Made by a program: the position numbers and the translations under genes. The notes below the pieces were generated by a model. That model worked only from the letters and a program-made list of their open reading frames with translations, was not told the DNA's origin and did not search any database. DNA of 61,645 nt, the filler included. It is 3 parts of 3 records of this genome, joined end to end, with 100 filler letters (N's around TTAATTAATTAA, not from the genome) between each part and the next. Parts side by side here need not be neighbours in the genome. Positions count along the whole stretch, not along the records: positions 1 to 27,945 come from SRR31156797_6720; 2 more parts are not named here. One strand, written 5' to 3'. Below, one piece after another: positions 17,966-28,045 of this stretch (position 1 is its first letter; each line of letters opens with the position of its first letter).

Positions 17966-19660
17966 ATGAGTAGCCCTCGCTTGCGTGTTCAATTTGAAAC
18001 CCTTTTTGAACACTTTAATGGTCAAAACGCTGATACCCAACTGGAAGATGTTACTGACATTTTGTTTTGTACTCGTCGAAATGCGCGCATTGTACTGAAC
18101 AAGATGGAAGAAGAAGGGTGGATAGAGTGGCACCCAGCAGCAGGACGAGGCAAGCTTTCCAAACTTATCTTTAAGCGAAGCCGAGCGGATGTGAGTGAAA
18201 ATTTGGCTCGACGCTATCTTGATGAAGGAAAAATTAGTCAGGCACTGGCGGTACTGGATGATGATGCGAACAAATTAGCTCAAGTTATCCAAAGCTATCT
18301 CGGTGTACAACATCAAGAAGGCCTACAGGTGATACGTCTGCCGTATTATCGACCGCTATCCATGCTTAACCCTCATAAGCCGATGCGCCGTTCAGAGCAA
18401 CACATCGCGCGTCAAATATACAGTGGGTTAACGCGCTTTGATGAAAATGAGAATCTCCAGCCCGATCTCGCTCATGCATGGGAATGTATCGACAAAAACC
18501 ATTGGCGCTTTTATTTACGCCCTGGCGTACGTTTTCACAACGGTGACCTTCTTACGACCGATATTGTCGTTGATAGCTTATTCAATCTTAAATCTTTCAA
18601 TATTTTTTCTCATATTGAAAAGGTAGTGTCGCCCGCCGATTGCATTGTTGATATCTATCTAAATAAACCCGATGTTCGATTACCACTGTTATTGGCAGAA
18701 TGCTGTGCGAAAGTGCTGTTACCTCAAGCCTCGCGGAATGACGATTTTGATTTACTCCCGGTGGGAACTGGGCCTTACAAAGTATTTCTTAACGACGATA
18801 AGCGCTTAATCTTACAAGCATTCGATGGCTATTTTGGTTATCGACCTCTATTAGATCGCGTAGAAGTGTGGGTTATCGATGAAAGCCATTCTTCAATGGT
18901 TTTTCCAAGCTTATCGAATCCAATTAAGACTCAACGCGGTTCATCTACAGAAGATGTTGATTTGGACCCAGGGTGTACTTATTTTCTACTTAATCGTCGT
19001 AACGGCATCGCATCTGATGATGCATGGGCAGAGTATTTTTTCAGTAAATTTAACACCCTGAACTTATACCGACAGATTCCTGAAGAAAAAATTGTGGAAC
19101 TTGGCGTGTTACCTGCTTATGGTTTGAAGCCAGGGTGGTATCATCAATTACCTGTTGGTGACAATGTCACGCCACCTGAAAAAATTAACGTCACGATTGC
19201 GTATCATGCGCAACATCCTATGTTTTCCATGATGGCAAAAATTGTCGAACGCCTTTTAAAACAAGATCAGATTGGTGTTGATTTCATAAAGTATGAAACG
19301 ACGGTTGAAGACGCCGATAAAGTAGATATTTGGATTAAACCGATGGGAATCGCGAACCATCGAGATGACGCTCTGGCAAGTTGGCTACTCAATGACTCTG
19401 ATATTGAGCACTTAAGCCGAGATGAAGATTTTCTATCTTGGACAGCATTAATCGATGATTGGCGTGCAGATGATAAGGTCGCATTTCCTGGTAAAGAGAT
19501 TGGACGTGCTTTAGTTGAGTCTCACCAAGTCATACCTATGGTTCACTGTTGGTTAGGGGTTAGTAAAGATCAATGTGGTTCGTTACAAAACGCCAAATGC
19601 AATGCTTTGGGCTGGTTTGATTTCAGTCAGGTTTGGGTTAAGCCTGAGTTTAAGATTTAG
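17966..19660 (+). CDS. SgrR family transcriptional regulator (HTH plus SBP_bac_5 domain)
   Basis: LFCTRRNAR...GWIEWHPAAGRGKLS N-domain; PDLAHAW, GTGPY. Confidence 0.93.
   Translation: MSSPRLRVQFETLFEHFNGQNADTQLEDVTDILFCTRRNARIVLNKMEEEGWIEWHPAAGRGKLSKLIFKRSRADVSENLARRYLDEGKISQALAVLDDDANKLAQVIQSYLGVQHQEGLQVIRLPYYRPLSMLNPHKPMRRSEQHIARQIYSGLTRFDENENLQPDLAHAWECIDKNHWRFYLRPGVRFHNGDLLTTDIVVDSLFNLKSFNIFSHIEKVVSPADCIVDIYLNKPDVRLPLLLAECCAKVLLPQASRNDDFDLLPVGTGPYKVFLNDDKRLILQAFDGYFGYRPLLDRVEVWVIDESHSSMVFPSLSNPIKTQRGSSTEDVDLDPGCTYFLLNRRNGIASDDAWAEYFFSKFNTLNLYRQIPEEKIVELGVLPAYGLKPGWYHQLPVGDNVTPPEKINVTIAYHAQHPMFSMMAKIVERLLKQDQIGVDFIKYETTVEDADKVDIWIKPMGIANHRDDALASWLLNDSDIEHLSRDEDFLSWTALIDDWRADDKVAFPGKEIGRALVESHQVIPMVHCWLGVSKDQCGSLQNAKCNALGWFDFSQVWVKPEFKI
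19158..19170. promoter_or_regulatory. matS site (perfect consensus)
   Basis: GTGACAATGTCAC matches GTGACRNYGTCAC. Confidence 0.7.
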
Positions 19661-21354: not shown

Positions 21355-24039
21355 CTAACGGTTGAGCACGAGAACCATGTCTGCCGTACCATCTTCAAAA
21401 TGAACATCGATTTCAAACCCGAGTTTTTGTGCTAACGTCAACATTCCCCGGTTGGTCGGCATGGTCATTCCTGATATTTGAGCTGTTCCCTTCGAGCGGC
21501 AATAGTCGATGATTTTACTCATTAAAATTTTACCCAATCCTTTGCCTTTAATGTCGGTTCGAATCAGTATCGCGAATTCCGCGTCAGTATTCTCCGGGTT
21601 AATCAGTGCTCGGGAGACACCAATTATCTGTTCATCACCCTCAGATTTACTGACCGCAACGAAGGCCATTTCACGGTCATAATCGATTTGGGTCAAATTA
21701 GCTAATGCTTCGTGGTTGAACTCTCCAACATCTGAAAAGAAGCGTTTGTAGAGATCTTCTTTACTTACTTTCTTGATGAATTCAGCATGGCTTGGTTCAT
21801 CTTCTGGCAGGATAGGGCGTACAACAATTTGTTCACCGTCTTTAGTTAAACACTCTTCGACCATTTCGGTTGGGTATGGCCGAACGGCAAGGCGACTTTG
21901 CGCATCACCGTTAAATGGTTTAAGAGTTAAATCAGCATCCAGAATGGTAAATTGATCGCCATTGACTAACACTGGGTGAAGATCCAGTTCGTGCACCTGA
22001 GGGCATTCGACGATCATTTGCGATATTCTCACTAAAAATTCAGATAACCCATTGATATCAATTGGAACAGGTAATTTCTGCAAGCGAATGTTGCCCCGTT
22101 TAATTGCCCGAACAATAAGATAACGTGCCAGAGTCATATTCAGCGGTGGGAGTGCCGCTGTCGCATCTATGGCTTCATTCCATTCTGATCCGCCTTGACC
22201 TAACAAGATCACTGGGCCAAATGTATTATCGTGTTTTACCTTTATTCTTAACTCTTCCCCCCCAGCCAGCCTTGCCATTCCTTGCACTACTAAACCATGA
22301 ATGTTGGCAGATGGAAAACGCAACATAGTGCGATCTAAAATGGCATGGGCAGCACTGGATACCTCTTGACTGTTTCTCAGGTTAAGCATGACACCCTGAA
22401 CATCAGATTTATGTGCAATGTCAGGGGAGCGAAGTTTTACCGCGACTGGGTAACCAATGGTTTCCGCAATATGTACCGCTTCACTGGAGTCAGATGCAAT
22501 CCATGTAGGTAAGATGTTAAAGTTGAAGCACTTTAAGAAATTACCTATTTGATGGGTATCAAGATGTAAGCTCTTTGCTTCGGCTAAATGTTCTTCAATC
22601 CAGCTATGCGCCGTATTAATTTCTGATACGTGAACCGATTCTGAGGTTGTCGGTGTCTCCATCAGTTGCTTTTGGTTTCGTCTATATTCCACAAGGTGCA
22701 TGAAGGCTACAACGGCGCTTTCTGGTGTGCGATAAGTGGGGATACCAGCTTGATTAAATAGCTGTCTTGCCGGTTTCGCGGTGAGTTCGCCAGACCAATT
22801 GGTGAGAATATTAAATCTTCTTGAGCGAGGGTGAGCTTTTATTGTATCAATCACTGCTTTTGCCGTTTCTTCTGAATGAGCTATCGCCGAAGGGCTATGC
22901 ATAATCAGTATTGCGTCAATGTTATCACTGTCTAAAACGGCTTCTAACGCACTCACATAACGATTTTGACCAGCATCACCGACGATATCGATGGGATTAC
23001 TGTGTGACCAACTTTGAGGAAGTGCTTTGTTGAGCTTTTCTATCACTAAATCGTCGAGTTCGGCAAGGCGACCACCATGGTCGAGTAGTGTATCTGTGGC
23101 CATAATGGCTGGCCCGCCACCGTTAGTAATGATGGCTAAACGTTCACCACGCAGAGGGACAGAGTGTGTAAGAGTTTCTACGGCTGCAAACAGTTCATGC
23201 GTATTATTAACACGTAACATACCGGTACGTCTGATTGCCGAATCATAAATAATGTCTAATGTGTCGTCACCACCCGTATGCATTTGGGCTGCTTTTTTCC
23301 CCGCATTGGTACGTCCACCTTTTAGAACCAATATGCGACGGTTACGAGAGGCTGCCCGTGCCGCCGACATAAAGCGTCTAGCGTCGCGAATGGTATCGAC
23401 GTAGAGCAAAATGGCATCGGTATGTTTATCTGTACTTAGACAGTCGAGTAAATCTGCGAAATCGATATCACTGGCATTGCCCAAAGAAACAAATGCAGAA
23501 AAGCCGATTTGCTTGTCATTCGCCCAATCTAAAATGGTTGTGCATACTGCAGCAGATTGTGAAATAAACGCGATGTTTCCACGATAAGCGGTAACTGGAG
23601 AGAATGAACCATTAAAGTTTACCCAGGGCAAAATTAATCCTAGGCTATTTGGTCCGAGGATTCTTATGCCTGCCTGTTTGGCTATTTGGTTACATTGTGC
23701 TTGGATCTCATTGCCTTGAGCATCGGCTGTGTACATATCGGAAGAGAGCACAATGACATTCGCAACACCTAATTCTGCCAATTGATTAAATATTTGAACG
23801 TTGCGACTGGCATGAGTACAAAGAATCGCGATATCTGGCGTTAAGGGAAGGTCACTGATTGTTTTATAGGCGAGCACGCCACATACCGACGGATAATAGG
23901 GTGTTACTGGCATGATCGCACCGTCAAATCCGCCTTGAAGTAAGTTCTTCATGACAACATTACCGGCTCGAAATGGACGAATTGATGCGCCAATAACAGC
24001 GACGGATTTAGGGTTAAGTAATTGATTCAAATTATTCAT
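21355..24039 (-). CDS. yfiQ: Protein lysine acetyltransferase (acyl-CoA synthetase-like domains plus GNAT; Pat/PatZ/YfiQ)
   Basis: PKSVAVIGAS, GPNSLG, HKSDVQGV; C-terminal GNAT with QIDYDREMA and GKGLG. Confidence 0.93.
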   Translation of the reverse strand: MNNLNQLLNPKSVAVIGASIRPFRAGNVVMKNLLQGGFDGAIMPVTPYYPSVCGVLAYKTISDLPLTPDIAILCTHASRNVQIFNQLAELGVANVIVLSSDMYTADAQGNEIQAQCNQIAKQAGIRILGPNSLGLILPWVNFNGSFSPVTAYRGNIAFISQSAAVCTTILDWANDKQIGFSAFVSLGNASDIDFADLLDCLSTDKHTDAILLYVDTIRDARRFMSAARAASRNRRILVLKGGRTNAGKKAAQMHTGGDDTLDIIYDSAIRRTGMLRVNNTHELFAAVETLTHSVPLRGERLAIITNGGGPAIMATDTLLDHGGRLAELDDLVIEKLNKALPQSWSHSNPIDIVGDAGQNRYVSALEAVLDSDNIDAILIMHSPSAIAHSEETAKAVIDTIKAHPRSRRFNILTNWSGELTAKPARQLFNQAGIPTYRTPESAVVAFMHLVEYRRNQKQLMETPTTSESVHVSEINTAHSWIEEHLAEAKSLHLDTHQIGNFLKCFNFNILPTWIASDSSEAVHIAETIGYPVAVKLRSPDIAHKSDVQGVMLNLRNSQEVSSAAHAILDRTMLRFPSANIHGLVVQGMARLAGGEELRIKVKHDNTFGPVILLGQGGSEWNEAIDATAALPPLNMTLARYLIVRAIKRGNIRLQKLPVPIDINGLSEFLVRISQMIVECPQVHELDLHPVLVNGDQFTILDADLTLKPFNGDAQSRLAVRPYPTEMVEECLTKDGEQIVVRPILPEDEPSHAEFIKKVSKEDLYKRFFSDVGEFNHEALANLTQIDYDREMAFVAVSKSEGDEQIIGVSRALINPENTDAEFAILIRTDIKGKGLGKILMSKIIDYCRSKGTAQISGMTMPTNRGMLTLAQKLGFEIDVHFEDGTADMVLVLNR

Positions 24040-24115
24040 AGTTATCCCGCCACATGTTGACTATGTTTATATCGTAACCAATAAAGCGAAATCCTGTACG
24101 CGAATTTAGTATCGC

Positions 24116-24164
24116 TGTGATCATGACTACATCAATCAAATTTGACTTTGTGTGCTAAATCACA
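24116..24164. promoter_or_regulatory. Two CRP-like sites in the pat/SPOR divergent region
   Basis: TGTGA-tcatga-CTACA (24116-24131) and TGTGT-gctaaa-TCACA (24149-24164). Confidence 0.55.
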
Positions 24165-24258
24165 TGAAAGTGTTATATATTAATAACGTATGCTTGATTC
24201 TCATCGCGGCTATCGGCATGATTTAACTTAACTACTATTAGAGCGTTAAAAAGAATCC

Positions 24259-24837
24259 ATGAAAAAAATTGTATTAATTGGTTTGTCAGCACTTCTTGCG
24301 GCATGTTCTTCAGGAACGTACATGACAGATGTTACTTCAGAAACTCACCGTGAAGAATACAATGTAGCCACTGTTCAGCAACCTGTGGTTTCTGATACAG
24401 GTATGGCAGCGGGTATTACTGAGCAAAATGTTCAACCAGCTATCGTTCAAACGTCTCCTCAGCCGATAGCGACAAAAACAGTGATTAAAACCTCTCCTAA
24501 GGCAGAAAGTGTTGCAATTACACCGCCAACCGCTAAGCAAGTTGCAATGAACCCTCGCTATGGCTTTACTGTTCAAGTTGTTGCCGTAGGTAGCCAAAAC
24601 AAAGTAGATCAATTTGCGACTAAATTACCTAAGAATGGTCAGCCTATTTGGGAAAACTACAAAGTCGTAAATGGTACAAAATGGTACACAATTCTGTTTG
24701 GCGATTACGCAACGCGCCAAGAAGCTACCCAAGCCATCTCTGAACTTCCAGCTGATTTCCAACAGCTAAAGCCATTCGTGAAAAGTATTGACGCAATTAA
24801 GAATTCTGAGTTCCCAACGCTCAATAAGCTAAATTAG
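24259..24837 (+). CDS. SPOR domain lipoprotein
   Basis: Lipobox LAAC; FTVQVVA...WYTILFGDYATRQEA...KPFVKS. Confidence 0.88.
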   Translation: MKKIVLIGLSALLAACSSGTYMTDVTSETHREEYNVATVQQPVVSDTGMAAGITEQNVQPAIVQTSPQPIATKTVIKTSPKAESVAITPPTAKQVAMNPRYGFTVQVVAVGSQNKVDQFATKLPKNGQPIWENYKVVNGTKWYTILFGDYATRQEATQAISELPADFQQLKPFVKSIDAIKNSEFPTLNKLN

Positions 24838-24854
24838 TTCATTCATAAAGACAC

Positions 24855-24879
24855 AAAGGGGCCGATTAGCCCCTTTTTT
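24855..24879 (+). terminator. Intrinsic terminator
   Basis: AAAGGGGC-cgatta-GCCCCTTT plus T-run. Confidence 0.8.
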
Positions 24880-24988
24880 GTCTGTTCTCTGACCATTCAA
24901 TCACCAGAAACTAAGTCTAACGGTGTAAGTTAGTAAAGAATTGACTATGATGGTCAGGATTTAAAATTAGTGTCTCGGAAACATTAAA

Positions 24989-25993
24989 ATGACAAACACA
25001 ACCATTCTTCTTTTGTGTGGCGGTGGCTCTTCAGAACATGAAGTGTCACTGGTTTCAGCCAACTATCTACAACAACAACTTGGTTTAACCCCTGAGTTTG
25101 ACGTCATCCGTGTTGAGATGAACAAGGATGGTTGGTTTACGGAAAACAATGAACTTGTCTACTTAGATACTAATTCTGCCTGCTTAAATGGCGAGTCACT
25201 CAATAAAAAAATCGATTTTGTTGTGCCATGTATTCATGGTTACCCAGGTGAAACGGGTGATATCCAATCTATGTTGGAGTTAACCGGTATTCCATATTTA
25301 GGTTGTGGACCTGAAGCAAGTACCAATAGCTTCAACAAGATCACTTCAAAGCTTTGGTATGACGCGTTAGGTATTCCCAATACTCCTTATCTGTTTTTAA
25401 CAGAGAACACATCAACCTCACATCAACAAGCACTGCATGCCTTTGATAAGTGGGGAAAAATCTTTGTTAAAGCTGCACGTCAGGGCTCTTCAGTTGGTTG
25501 TTACAAGGTCACTAAACGCGATGAGGTTGTTTCGTCGGTTGAAGCTGCGTTTGGATTCTCTGAGCAAGTTCTGATTGAAAAAGCGGTGAAACCGCGAGAG
25601 CTTGAAGTCGCCGCTTATGAATTTAATGGTGAACTTCACATCTCAAAACCTGGTGAGATTATCGCGCCCGAAGATGCGTTCTATAGCTACGAAGAAAAGT
25701 ATAGCTCTGATAGTCACTCAACCACTCACGTGGAAGCGGGCAACCTGAGCGATGAGCAACAGACAGTTATTCTTAACGCAGCTCAAAAAGTGTTTACCCA
25801 TATGAAGCTGAGACACCTGTCTCGCATCGACTTCTTTTTAACTACTGAAGGCGACGTTTATCTTAACGAAGTCAATACCTTCCCGGGGATGACCCCGATC
25901 TCGATGTTCCCTAAAATGCTAGAAAATAATGGTCACAAGTTTTATCAGTTCTTGGCAAATTGTGTTCGCACTTCGGTTACTCCAAAGGTTTAA
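24989..25993 (+). CDS. ddl: D-alanine--D-alanine ligase
   Basis: GGGSSEHEVSL, IHGYPGE, GSSVG, RIDFF, NEVNTFPGMT. Confidence 0.96.
   Translation: MTNTTILLLCGGGSSEHEVSLVSANYLQQQLGLTPEFDVIRVEMNKDGWFTENNELVYLDTNSACLNGESLNKKIDFVVPCIHGYPGETGDIQSMLELTGIPYLGCGPEASTNSFNKITSKLWYDALGIPNTPYLFLTENTSTSHQQALHAFDKWGKIFVKAARQGSSVGCYKVTKRDEVVSSVEAAFGFSEQVLIEKAVKPRELEVAAYEFNGELHISKPGEIIAPEDAFYSYEEKYSSDSHSTTHVEAGNLSDEQQTVILNAAQKVFTHMKLRHLSRIDFFLTTEGDVYLNEVNTFPGMTPISMFPKMLENNGHKFYQFLANCVRTSVTPKV
25500..25512. promoter_or_regulatory. matS-like site
   Basis: GTTACAAGGTCAC. Confidence 0.5.
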
Positions 25994-26936
25994 ACGCAAA
26001 GAACTTTAGTTTTTCCTGCTCAGCTGAGTTTACGTCGCCCAGATATTGATAGGGCATGGCTGGACTCAGCCAGCGACCAAAATCTTGTATATGCTTCGCT
26101 TTATAACCTTGAGCGGAGAGCTCTTTCACCGCGCCGATACGTGCTGATTGACCAGAAAATTTAAGTTCTGTGTTATCGAGTAACTTGCCTGCATTCCTCA
26201 AAATTCGAAAAATAGAAGAGTCGTCGAGCTTTTTATCCGAAATATTGCCGTGCCTATCTATGGAGCGAAATACGATTTCGTGACCATCACACAATAAAGT
26301 TAACCACTTTGATAGGCAAACATGTGCATTCTCTGACAAACTATAAGCCGATTGACCAAATGTTAGGGTGCTATTGGAAGGCGTTGATTGGATTTGAGAC
26401 AACGTAAATTGTTTCAAATCTGAGCGCTTTAAAGCGCATTCAAACATCACGTGATAAATAGCAAGATCTCGGATCATCTTAGTTGAAGGGTCATTATGAA
26501 ACTTTTCATAAAGAGAAAATAAATGAGTGCTGGTAAAGCTGGCTGCTTGTTGCTGATCCCCCTTTTTGTCAATGCGTAATAAAGAAAGCGATTGGCGCAC
26601 TTTAGCGTTCGCAGTGGGGTCTTTTTGATTTAACAGTTTGTGCATCATACTTATAGTGACATTGTAACGCCTTATCGTGTTGAACTTACGTGTTTTCGCC
26701 TCGTGTTCCAAGAATAAACGGACTGCAGTTACAGAAGCGGGAAGGGCTGTTACCGAACGAGAATGACAAAATTCTACAAACAAGTTCCAATCTTTTGTCA
26801 TAGCTAACAGAGAATTACGAGCATAAGCATGCTGAGTCAGCTCATTCATCTGTTCTAGATTTACCAATTGATTAAATTGAACTAAAGTTTGCTGCGAAAT
26901 ATTTTGAACTGTGACGCAAGTTAACTTTTTCTTCAT
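25977..26936 (-). CDS. Cre-like tyrosine recombinase/integrase family protein with altered catalytic residues
   Basis: SAM-like N-domain; ALKRSDL, FSGQSARIGA, GRWLSPAMPYQY; overlaps ddl 3' end by 17 nt. Confidence 0.88.
   Translation of the reverse strand: MKKKLTCVTVQNISQQTLVQFNQLVNLEQMNELTQHAYARNSLLAMTKDWNLFVEFCHSRSVTALPASVTAVRLFLEHEAKTRKFNTIRRYNVTISMMHKLLNQKDPTANAKVRQSLSLLRIDKKGDQQQAASFTSTHLFSLYEKFHNDPSTKMIRDLAIYHVMFECALKRSDLKQFTLSQIQSTPSNSTLTFGQSAYSLSENAHVCLSKWLTLLCDGHEIVFRSIDRHGNISDKKLDDSSIFRILRNAGKLLDNTELKFSGQSARIGAVKELSAQGYKAKHIQDFGRWLSPAMPYQYLGDVNSAEQEKLKFFAFKPLE
26656..26668. promoter_or_regulatory. matS-like site
   Basis: GTGACATTGTAAC. Confidence 0.55.
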
Positions 26937-27035
26937 CTTAGCGCACTATAACTTAAAGAATTTGTAAAGAATATACTTGATAACCATGCATTTACAATTA
27001 TTATTTACGTAATACTTAAATAAAGCGAGTTAACT

Positions 27036-27410
27036 ATGGCGAACGCATCTTATCGAGGCTTCACATTACAAACAGCTAAAAGTTCAGCGGATGTTTGGCA
27101 AGTTAGAGTTAAAAACCATGTGCTTAGTGGAAATCTAGCTGCTGTTAAAAAAAGTATAGATTGGTGGTGTGATACTGCACAACTGATTGATCCAAGTGAA
27201 TTTGAGTCTGTTGGTAAAAAACGCGCCGCAAGCGCAACAGTTGAAGAAAATTTCAACGGATTCACTTTAAAAAATGACACTGGTGAAGCGAATGCTTGGT
27301 ATTGTTTCTTCAATGGACGCTTGATTAAAGGTTCTAAGGTTGCATTGCAGAAACATATTGAGGCACACTTGATTGCAAAGCAACGAGCAGCTGCTCAACA
27401 GAGAAAATAA
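27036..27410 (+). CDS. DUF3319-like protein with two internal repeats
   Basis: YRGFTL...W...G...K.I motif occurs twice; KKSIDWWCD; directly upstream of yciH. Confidence 0.8.
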   Translation: MANASYRGFTLQTAKSSADVWQVRVKNHVLSGNLAAVKKSIDWWCDTAQLIDPSEFESVGKKRAASATVEENFNGFTLKNDTGEANAWYCFFNGRLIKGSKVALQKHIEAHLIAKQRAAAQQRK

Positions 27411-27420
27411 GTAGTATCCA

Positions 27421-27732
27421 ATGACTTTAGTATATTCAACCGAAACTGGCCGTATTAAGCAAGAACCTGAGAAAGTTGAGAGACCCAAAGGTGATGGCAT
27501 TGTACGAATTCACCGTGAAACAAAGGGGCGAAAAGGCAAAGGTGTAAGTATTGTTAAAGGACTTGACCTTGACGATGCTCCTTTGAAGCTTCTGGCGGCA
27601 GAATTAAAAAAAGTTTGTGGTTGTGGCGGAGCCATTAAAGACGGTGCAATTGAAATTCAGGGTGATATGCGAGATAAGATCAAAGCACATCTTGAAAAGA
27701 AAGGTATGAAAGTGAAACTCGCCGGCAGTTAA
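27421..27732 (+). CDS. yciH: Translation initiation factor SUI1 family YciH
   Basis: LVYSTETGRI, RETKGRKGKGV, KKVCGCGG, IEIQGD. Confidence 0.95.
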   Translation: MTLVYSTETGRIKQEPEKVERPKGDGIVRIHRETKGRKGKGVSIVKGLDLDDAPLKLLAAELKKVCGCGGAIKDGAIEIQGDMRDKIKAHLEKKGMKVKLAGS

Positions 27733-27764
27733 GCAAGTAGATTCTTGTATCTCATACTATTAGT

Positions 27765-27795
27765 AAGGCAACTCTATTAACGATGAGTTGCCTTT
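27765..27795 (+). terminator. Intrinsic terminator
   Basis: AAGGCAACTC...GAGTTGCCTT. Confidence 0.7.
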
Positions 27796-27945
27796 GTTAT
27801 ATCTGGCATGTTTGAAGAACAATAGATAGCTCTAGTGTATAACAAGCGCACATAAATACCGTTTAGCGACTCTCCATGAACTGTACGTATATATGTTTAC
27901 TAATGACTGCATTTGTAATCGAAGATGATAAATGTAGTTATTAGG

Positions 27946-28045
27946 NNNNNNNNNNNNNNNNNNNNNNNNNNNNNNNNNNNNNNNNNNNNTTAATTAATTA
28001 ANNNNNNNNNNNNNNNNNNNNNNNNNNNNNNNNNNNNNNNNNNNN
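27946..28045. other. Artificial contig spacer
   Basis: 44 N, TTAATTAATTAA (stops in all frames), 44 N; taxon changes across it. Confidence 0.99.

Follow-up and report, generated by a model that had tools for sequence, protein, structure and literature searches.

A probably domesticated Cre-type recombinase homologue with a remodelled active site is kept beside dif2 across the Vibrionaceae

The tyrosine recombinase Cre of phage P1, together with plasmid-borne Cre-type proteins, is the nearest described relative, in solved structure and in sequence, of the protein considered here. According to the available text of Gibb et al. (PMC2943603), Tyr324 and Lys201 are the two essential residues of Cre. 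The same text describes the R173K variant as inactive in vitro and defective in synapsis, yet able to recombine in vivo; the H289Q variant as active, with accumulation of the covalent intermediate; substitutes for Lys201 as only very weak; and Arg173 as hydrogen-bonded to O5′. Across the family, Lys at the Arg-I position is given for 1.1% of sequences and Gln at the His-II position for about 1% (PMC2943603). Two further systems bear on the comparison. Multimer-resolving recombinases are usually encoded close to the site they act on, as described for XerS and XerH in the accessible part of a Xer review (PMC5357621), and MrpR of SPbeta is presented in the available text of PMC10516654 as a repressor with the recombinase fold and 3 of 7 catalytic residues, including the Tyr, that does not recombine DNA. 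We analysed a stretch of DNA of 61,645 nucleotides (the window) that encodes a Cre-like protein in a gene we call REC. No description of this gene was found in open-access papers and preprints, the literature covered. What is new here is a Cre-type homologue, probably domesticated, whose active site is remodelled and whose gene stays beside dif2, the dif site of chromosome 2, across the Vibrionaceae.

REC is an intact, uninterrupted frame with an ATG start, in agreement with the full-length open reading frame (ORF) of the preliminary description of this DNA:

25977..26936, minus strand: REC ORF, 319 amino acids (aa); AlphaFold2 model with mean pLDDT 92.3; top solved match Cre

When the protein was compared with Protein Data Bank chains using HMMER, matches at E below 0.01 were obtained only for Cre and the engineered Tre (E 3e-7 to 2.5e-6). 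Foldseek searches with the AlphaFold2 model (built from 47 homologues) likewise placed Cre and Tre chains at the top (E 5e-15 to 1e-11, TM 0.70-0.76), followed by XerA, XerH, Tn1549 Int and IntI at 7e-8 to 4e-6; MrpR structures also appeared among the structural matches, much more distant than Cre. The two-domain fold of tyrosine recombinases, with its core-binding and catalytic domains, is present. Profile matches were weaker. The Pfam model PF00589 (Phage_integrase) scored 24.9 bits (E 1.9e-5), below its gathering cut-off of 27.1, and is a precomputed match in all 120 homologues listed of 254. The NCBIfam models of XerD and XerC, members of the same superfamily, gave weak partial matches over residues 34-189.

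The motifs picked out in the preliminary description were found in the protein: ALKRSDL (box I) at residues 168-174 and, in box II, FSGQSARIGA at 260-269, GRW at 287-289 and YQY at 296-298. The HMMER alignment equates K170 with Cre R173, D173 with E176, Q263 with H289, R266 with R292, W289 with W315 and Y298 with Y324, and the same catalytic equivalences emerged when the protein was aligned with P1 Cre, canonical relatives and a plasmid protein of V. coralliilyticus. In the alignment with P1 Cre and canonical relatives, the beta2-beta3 hairpin is 8-11 residues shorter and has no conserved Lys; the deleted hairpin is the one that holds the catalytic Lys, within ‘TKT’ in Cre (K201) and within ‘SKTDQ’ or ‘TKTN’ in relatives. 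By these alignments, three of the seven predicted catalytic positions are changed or lost (Arg-I, His-II and the hairpin Lys), and Glu/Asp-I, Arg-II, Trp and Tyr are kept. A by-eye comparison had already proposed Arg-I to Lys, His to Gln and a missing hairpin Lys, with Arg-II, Trp and Tyr retained, and both alignments agree with it. In contrast to Cre, with which it shares 17-20% identity, the REC protein has Lys at Arg-I, Gln at His-II and no K201 hairpin. The codons concerned are as follows:

26427..26429, minus strand: K170 codon, Arg-I position (Cre R173); Lys in 137/140 clade members
26424-26426, minus strand: R171 codon; Arg in 140/140 clade members
26340..26381, minus strand: shortened beta2-beta3 hairpin by alignment, residues 186-199, without the catalytic Lys
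26148..26150, minus strand: Q263 codon, His-II position (Cre H289), from the alignments
26139..26141, minus strand: R266 codon, Arg-II (Cre R292), invariant in the alignments
26070..26072, minus strand: W289 codon, His/Trp-III (Cre W315), from the alignments
26043..26045, minus strand: Y298 codon, nucleophile position (Cre Y324), invariant in the alignments

Conservation was assessed in 254 full-length proteins, the query included, which were divided by identity to the query and not by active-site features into 140 cluster representatives at 33% identity or more (the clade) and 114 more distant proteins. Position 170 (Arg-I) is Lys in 137 clade members, Arg in 2 and Asn in 1, and Arg in 112/114 of the distant group. 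The adjacent position 171 is Arg in 140/140, compared with 68/114. At position 263 (His-II) the clade has Gln in 132, His in 5, Leu in 2 and Asn in 1, and the distant group has His in 110/114. Position 266 (Arg-II) is Arg throughout (140/140 and 114/114); position 289 (His/Trp-III) is Trp in 137 and Tyr in 2 of 140, and Trp in 101 and His in 11 of 114; position 298 is Tyr in 139 clade members, with one gap, and in 114/114 distant proteins; and Glu/Asp-I is kept in 137/140. The hairpin segment (query residues 180-200) spans 19-25 aa in the clade, with a mode of 21 versus 31 in canonical relatives, and its [STN]K[TS] motif occurs in 2/140 clade members versus 80/114 distant relatives. The remodelled active site is confirmed as a clade-wide, nearly fixed Vibrionaceae feature, and the Lys and Gln for which the preliminary description had suggested an orthologue survey are nearly fixed (137/140 and 132/140).

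In a FastTree tree of 258 sequences rooted on Cre, the remodelled proteins form one clade of 143 tips (support 1.0), which nests among canonical R-H-R-W-Y proteins on a stem of 0.57 substitutions per site. The rare forms with His or Arg are nested within this clade. Lys at Arg-I together with loss of the hairpin Lys was also seen in two single sequences, P0179 and P0171; P0179 represents an independent lineage, its sister being the canonical P0193 (support 0.968).

Several divergent copies were also encountered. V. mediterranei and V. breoganii each carry a second copy of the remodelled protein (P0137 and P0138, respectively) in addition to the main orthologue, and some Vibrionaceae genomes have 2-4 matches to the REC profile. 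In P0137, P0139 and P0145 (from among V. mediterranei, V. owensii and Vibrio sp.), Tyr replaces Trp at His/Trp-III. P0138 has Asn at both Arg-I and His-II, and P0145 again has Arg at Arg-I.

We then considered the genomic setting. One genome per species was scanned, which gave 122 loci, and the best 80 of the 122 were used (78 titled Vibrio, one ‘Vibrionales bacterium’ and one ‘Pseudomonadota bacterium’ metagenome-assembled genome). The conserved gene order is yciH, DUF3319, REC, ddl, a SPOR-domain gene, an acetate-CoA ligase/GNAT gene (PatZ-like) and a LysR gene, with counts per 80 loci of 80 for SUI1 (yciH), 79 for Ddl, 79 for SPOR, 77 for DUF3319, 75 for PatZ-like and 65 for LysR. In the window, the immediate neighbours are:

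24989..25993, plus strand: ddl, D-alanine--D-alanine ligase, convergent with REC and overlapping it by 17 bp
27036..27410, plus strand: DUF3319 gene, divergent neighbour of REC; Pfam PF11782, E 1.7e-40; 77/80 loci
27421..27732, plus strand: yciH (SUI1 family), the final gene ahead of dif2 in relatives; 80/80 loci

The overlap with ddl, which the preliminary description had mentioned, is the 17 bp at 25977-25993. A profile search detected REC in 343/400 Vibrionaceae genomes, and the 57/400 without it include assemblies of merely 1-2.6 Mb. Orthologues of 34-51% identity lie on 0.56-2.1 Mb replicons of Vibrio, Photobacterium and Salinivibrio, which have the size of a chromosome 2 but are entered as plasmids in a plasmid database, and the same neighbours flank REC in the one Salinivibrio and the one Photobacterium record checked. 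None of the 150 matches listed has an internal stop; they are near full length, and all but one reach position 317 or beyond. By the Nei-Gojobori method, dN/dS for REC had a median of 0.070 and a range of 0.05-0.13 (13 usable of 19 pairs; of the pairs outside the dS filter, 5 were saturated and L048-L056, with dN 4.3 and dS 2.3, was seemingly misaligned). Neighbouring genes gave 0.018-0.056. REC evolves faster than its neighbours, yet it is clearly under constraint, with strong purifying selection.

REC has also been lost cleanly in some lineages. Five Vibrionaceae genomes without it retain LysR, PatZ-like, SPOR, ddl, a gap of 200-270 bp, DUF3319 and yciH. A dif-like site follows yciH in 4/5 of them; in the fifth, L103, no dif-like site was found at up to 3 mismatches.

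These results bear on the possibility that REC encodes an integrase belonging to a genomic island or other mobile element, or that it is a pseudogene in decay. The database name ‘tyrosine-type recombinase/integrase’ and the fall of window GC to 0.31-0.35 from about 28 kb onward could both be read in this way. However, the GC fall belongs to a different contig past the N spacer, the window contains no tRNA genes, and neither PHROGs nor PADLOC gave a match for the REC protein. REC occupies the same core block of chromosome 2 in 75-80/80 species and is not borne on a plasmid or phage-plasmid, the frame is intact in all 150 matches listed, and dN/dS is 0.07. Synteny and selection together refute the mobile-integrase or pseudogene reading, which we consider extremely improbable. 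The view of the preliminary description that REC is fixed among core genes and has no cargo neighbours is thus upheld by the synteny (75-80/80 loci) and the distribution (343/400 genomes); REC is also without att sites, and selection on the gene is not relaxed (median dN/dS 0.07; no stops in the 150 matches listed).

In contrast to this chromosomal core gene, Cre-type genes are plasmid genes. Canonical R-H-R-W-Y relatives of 24-27% identity lie on true plasmids of Pantoea (76 records), Vibrio, Aeromonas, Shewanella, Xanthomonas and others, and the carriers of canonical relatives below 33% identity are plasmids and phage-plasmids. One of these relatives adjoins a RelE/ParE module on a V. rumoiensis plasmid, and another shares an Aeromonas plasmid with a terminase gene. 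P1 and P7 matched too, with Cre as the matching protein; in P1, loxP lies close to cre.

The explanation that we favour, with slightly better than even confidence, is that the REC protein is a plasmid resolvase of the Cre type that became domesticated and now binds DNA, exchanging strands little or not at all. It is probably a relic of the plasmid past of chromosome 2, reused outside ordinary recombination. The gene would descend vertically from a Cre-type multimer-resolution recombinase of plasmids or P1-like phage-plasmids, and the megaplasmid ancestor of chromosome 2 may have carried such a resolution module at its terminus. REC would have resided on the plasmid-derived second chromosome since the common ancestor of the Vibrionaceae, in a ddl-REC-DUF3319-yciH block abutting dif2. 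A single remodelling on the stem of the clade could have changed Arg-I to Lys and His-II to Gln and deleted the hairpin with its general-acid Lys, and the Cre fold, the basic character, Glu/Asp-I, Arg-II, Trp and Tyr would have been retained through it. XerCD-FtsK acting at dif2 is envisaged to have taken over chromosome-dimer resolution, and the recombinase gene to have stayed with a retained or new function. We propose that the REC protein binds and bends specific DNA as Cre does, with little or no exchange, and that it may act as a regulatory or architectural DNA-binding protein in the manner of MrpR. In Cre, the R173K variant, though inactive in vitro, can still recombine in vivo and the H289Q variant retains activity, but K201 is essential; loss of the hairpin Lys would therefore be the decisive change. 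Efficient strand exchange by the REC protein appears unlikely on this analysis.

The comparison with MrpR/YopR and with SroF of phi3T rests on the shared recombinase fold and an incomplete catalytic set. These are Bacillus prophage proteins and not close relatives of the REC protein. MrpR keeps the Lys and is without the arginines, which is the opposite pattern to that of the REC protein.

Five observations weigh against a DNA-binding protein with little or no catalysis. First, Tyr (139/139), Arg-II (140/140), Trp (137/140) and Glu/Asp (137/140) are kept, which seems to exceed what binding to DNA would demand. Second, neither the Arg-I nor the His-II change is disabling by itself, given that Cre R173K recombines in vivo and H289Q is active according to the available text of PMC2943603. 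Third, the co-occurrence of Lys at Arg-I with hairpin-Lys loss in P0179 and P0171 hints at compensation and not decay. Fourth, no binding site for the REC protein was found near the gene. Fifth, the conserved blocks upstream of REC (described below) look like promoters, and blocks 1 and 2 persist where REC is absent.

The search for a target covered lox-like repeats (12-bp arms with up to 2 mismatches, 5-10 bp spacer) from -1300 to +1100 of the start codon in 81 loci; none was positionally conserved, and weaker sites would escape such a search. In contrast to Cre, then, REC has no conserved lox-like site nearby. The single conserved inverted repeat near REC is the hairpin after yciH. An inverted repeat of lox-like geometry within the ORF at 26391-26420, just after the box I codons (12-bp arms, 1 mismatch, 6-bp spacer), is peculiar to the window and was set aside: 2/81 loci have any repeat there, and it is probably due to chance.

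Several of these observations would fit a rewired yet active recombinase, or a nicking-closing enzyme, whose target site has escaped recognition; it might, for instance, serve chromosome 2 as a back-up resolvase or decatenase independent of FtsK. Lys170, at the position that in Cre contacts the 5′-O leaving group, would take the general-acid role of the deleted Lys, and the invariant Arg171 or Arg266 would supply the charge. The clade shows little or no variation at Tyr, Arg-II, Trp and Glu/Asp, R171 is found in 140/140 clade members versus 68/114 canonical relatives, as many as three lineages, one or more of them independent, combine Lys at Arg-I with loss of the hairpin Lys, selection on REC is strong, and the Cre data on R173K, H289Q and the Arg173-O5′ bond (PMC2943603, in the text available) are compatible with such an enzyme. 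On the other hand, that text describes only very weak substitutes for K201, no conserved target of lox geometry lies near REC, and MrpR likewise keeps its Tyr without recombining (PMC10516654, in the text available). Moreover, P0179 and P0171 are single sequences, and REC is cleanly lost in some lineages. We consider an active rewired enzyme unlikely. A more specific form of this idea, which we regard as rather more doubtful still, is that REC is the living, rewired remnant of the megaplasmid's pre-Xer dimer-resolution module, with Lys170 replacing both Arg-I and the general-acid Lys and the protein acting in the chromosome-2 terminus. Such a protein might carry out slow FtsK-independent resolution or unlinking, or hold sister dif2 regions together covalently or by synapsis, alongside XerCD. 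If the rewiring through Lys170 were real, it would constitute a new catalytic variant of the tyrosine-recombinase active site.

The position of REC relative to dif was examined in relatives. In 5/5 complete genomes, the REC-bearing replicon (chromosome 2 in four records, labelled ‘chromosome 1’ in one) has a dif-like site about 0.9-1.0 kb from REC, just past yciH, and the other chromosome has a dif-like site of its own. Across the 80 loci, a dif-like site was found in 71, always past yciH and always in one orientation; it lies 814-1109 bp from the REC start codon in 54 and 1.4-9.7 kb away in 17. No such site was found in 9/80 loci, some of which have short flanks. The distance is 2.3-2.6 kb in Photobacterium and Salinivibrio. 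The site near REC fits the XerCD dif consensus with 0-2 mismatches, and FtsK-orienting polar sequences (KOPS) aim at it by 41:0 on one side and 28:2 on the other (71 loci, from genomes that are related and hence not independent). The dif-like sites of relatives are genuine termini, where KOPS polarity flips.

The window itself holds no match to the dif pattern at up to 3 mismatches. It consists of two unrelated contigs: the left one (1-27946) has a GC content of about 0.42 and Vibrio-type genes, and the right one (28047-61645) has a GC content of 0.31-0.37 and comes from another organism, Bacteroidota-like. Their junction is marked by two features:

27891..27946, no strand: contig end within a dif-flanking repeat, from the match to the dif flank of relatives and a doubling of depth
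27947..28046, no strand: artificial spacer (contig joiner), N runs round TTAATTAATTAA

The final 22-23 nt of the Vibrio contig are identical to a segment by the dif-flank block in L001 and L002, the closest relatives. Contigs of two runs (X1 and X2) continue from 27945 into the dif-flank block, and positions 27891-27945, where depth doubles, recur in another contig of the run that is probably the source. The Vibrio contig broke in the dif-flanking repeat. Since its end matches the dif flank, other contigs read on and depth doubles, dif2 most likely lies about 95-120 bp past the contig end, roughly 1.1 kb from the REC start codon. The preliminary description had placed REC near the presumed dif and the terminus. 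The linkage to dif2 holds in relatives, but the terminus-like turn in skew and composition across the window is an artefact, because a Vibrio contig is joined to a low-GC contig of another organism.

The matS-like site and the KOPS that had been reported within the ORF are present:

26656..26668, plus strand: matS-like GTGACATTGTAAC with 1 mismatch, within the REC ORF at codons R90-T94
26739..26746, plus strand: KOPS-like GGGAAGGG, aimed at the predicted dif2

A matS-like site occupies the same part of the ORF (nt 240-270) in 19/81 orthologues. KOPS in the window are not above chance (3 seen vs 2.2 expected). Matches to matS at 2 mismatches or fewer are concentrated in the Vibrio contig, which holds 27/29 of those in the window (11 expected for the whole window), including one perfect site at 19158-19170 and five with 1 mismatch at 774, 5361, 14572, 25500 and 26656. 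Perfect matS sites number 53 in the 1.54 Mb of the 80 related loci, where about 3 would arise by chance (own arithmetic). This density round dif2 is a Ter-macrodomain signature.

One sub-case of the favoured explanation is a non-catalytic factor dedicated to dif2 or Ter2, which could bring sister termini together through synapsis of the Cre kind, or influence XerCD-FtsK recombination or the insertion of Xer-exploiting elements at dif2. The proximity and single orientation (0.8-1.1 kb from dif2 in 54/80 species, within 10 kb in 71/80), the similar arrangement at 2.3-2.6 kb in Photobacterium and Salinivibrio, and the dense matS-like sites (53 perfect in 1.54 Mb) speak for it. So does the tendency of single-recombinase Xer genes to adjoin their own dif, as stated in the accessible part of PMC5357621. 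XerS/difSL and XerH/difH likewise pair a tyrosine-recombinase gene with the chromosome's dimer-resolution site (PMC5357621). They differ from REC, however, in that the catalytic set of the REC protein is incomplete and the adjacent site is an XerCD-type dif and not an atypical dif of its own. Position alone is weak evidence for a role at dif2, because the LysR-to-yciH block as a whole is equally conserved there. A Xer role is further weakened by the five REC-less genomes; as they keep the neighbours and four of them have a dif-like site, REC is not needed for dif2. The available text of Val et al. (PMC2533119) also describes chromosome II of V. cholerae as resolved by XerCD-FtsK, with no candidate site-specific recombination system besides the superintegron integrase. 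Finally, the conserved element at dif2 described below also flanks dif1 in 4/5 genomes and hence is not REC-specific. A dedicated dif2 factor therefore seems improbable to us.

That element lies between yciH and dif and comprises ATTTACCATAAAATA with a second XerD-arm-like repeat. It is about 60-150 bp long and lies 85-125 bp from dif on the XerD-arm side (e.g. L001 6040-6140). The XerD-arm-like repeats are direct, ATTnAACATAA and then ATTTACCATAA, inverted relative to dif, and are followed by an AT-rich hairpin. The element occurs at dif2 in 71/80 Vibrio loci, in Photobacterium and Salinivibrio, and in 3/5 REC-less genomes, and at dif1 in 4/5 complete genomes; three of these match with 1 mismatch at most, and the fourth, which has a further difference, was recognised by eye. 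It was rejected as a REC binding site, as it travels with dif, persists without REC and also flanks dif1. It may provide additional XerD sites or be a scar left by an element that integrated long ago.

The far side of dif is variable over the nearest 1-2.5 kb, where genes recur in 1-11/80 loci; genes further out recur in 22-40. In addition, 17/71 loci have 0.6-9 kb of extra DNA between yciH and dif2 (they include L001, L002, L003, L007, L013, L018, L033, L045, L048, L053, L056 and L059). The extra DNA and the variable far side are candidates for Xer-exploiting integrated elements at dif2.

The 99 bp that separate REC from DUF3319 contain three blocks conserved across Vibrio species, of which the one closest to the REC start has decayed in genomes that lost REC. 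In 4/5 REC-less genomes, remnants of these blocks can still be recognised. Two overlapping promoter-like sites face each other in this region:

26970..26997, minus strand: promoter-like site for REC, TTGTAA-16-TATATT; a consensus match only, with its hexamers in blocks conserved across species
26977..27004, plus strand: divergent promoter-like site for DUF3319-yciH, TTGATA-16-TATTAT; a consensus match that overlaps the REC site

A second sub-case of the favoured explanation is that the REC protein is a local transcription regulator, autoregulating and controlling the divergent DUF3319-yciH operon. The overlapping face-to-face promoter-like sites, the three conserved blocks, the decay of the block by the REC start upon REC loss and the precedent of MrpR (PMC10516654, in the text available) are all consistent with such a role. 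However, no operator-type repeats or palindromes are conserved in the region, blocks 1 and 2 survive without REC, the motif of block 2 is not repeated elsewhere in 5 complete genomes, and DUF3319-yciH is kept in REC-less genomes. We regard local regulation as a tentative possibility, well short of an even chance. Parts of the ORF and of the intergenic DNA are represented, at 90-95% likeness, in contigs assembled from two RNA libraries of a single study; as contigs do not demonstrate transcription and such libraries may contain DNA, they speak neither for nor against expression.

REC may have escaped study because V. cholerae, the main chromosome-2 model, appears to be without it. This absence is probable given the statement of Val et al., the identity of vca0571 as the DUF3319 gene of V. 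cholerae (PMC10631443, in the text available) and the lack of the name V. cholerae among the 120 matches listed of 254. The gene matters in several respects. Vibrio chromosome 2 is the standard example of a chromosome that arose through domestication of a plasmid, and REC beside dif2 would be a concrete, testable trace of the swap from plasmid-style multimer resolution to host XerCD-FtsK. The clade can further serve as a natural experiment that shows which of the catalytic residues in tyrosine recombinases are replaceable, and it may add a case of a recombinase fold turned to DNA binding.

Other features of the window are of lesser relevance to REC. Rfam gave no match within 24000-27946. The right contig carries a stand-alone rplS, CdaA, a CarboxypepD_reg/Plug TonB receptor and a TPR histidine kinase whose top match is the Porphyromonas FimS model; its presence beside a Vibrio contig reflects a mixed assembly or contamination. 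On the Vibrio contig, the PatZ-like gene at 21355-24039 (minus strand) encodes a large ADP-forming acetate--CoA ligase fused to a GNAT acetyltransferase and adjoins a SPOR-domain lipoprotein and a second ddl, all within the block conserved at dif2. DUF3319 was found in none of 14 control genomes. Its protein has no NCBIfam model, is always paired with yciH, is kept where REC is lost, and matches PHROG phrog_20701 over its full length (E 5.6e-57).

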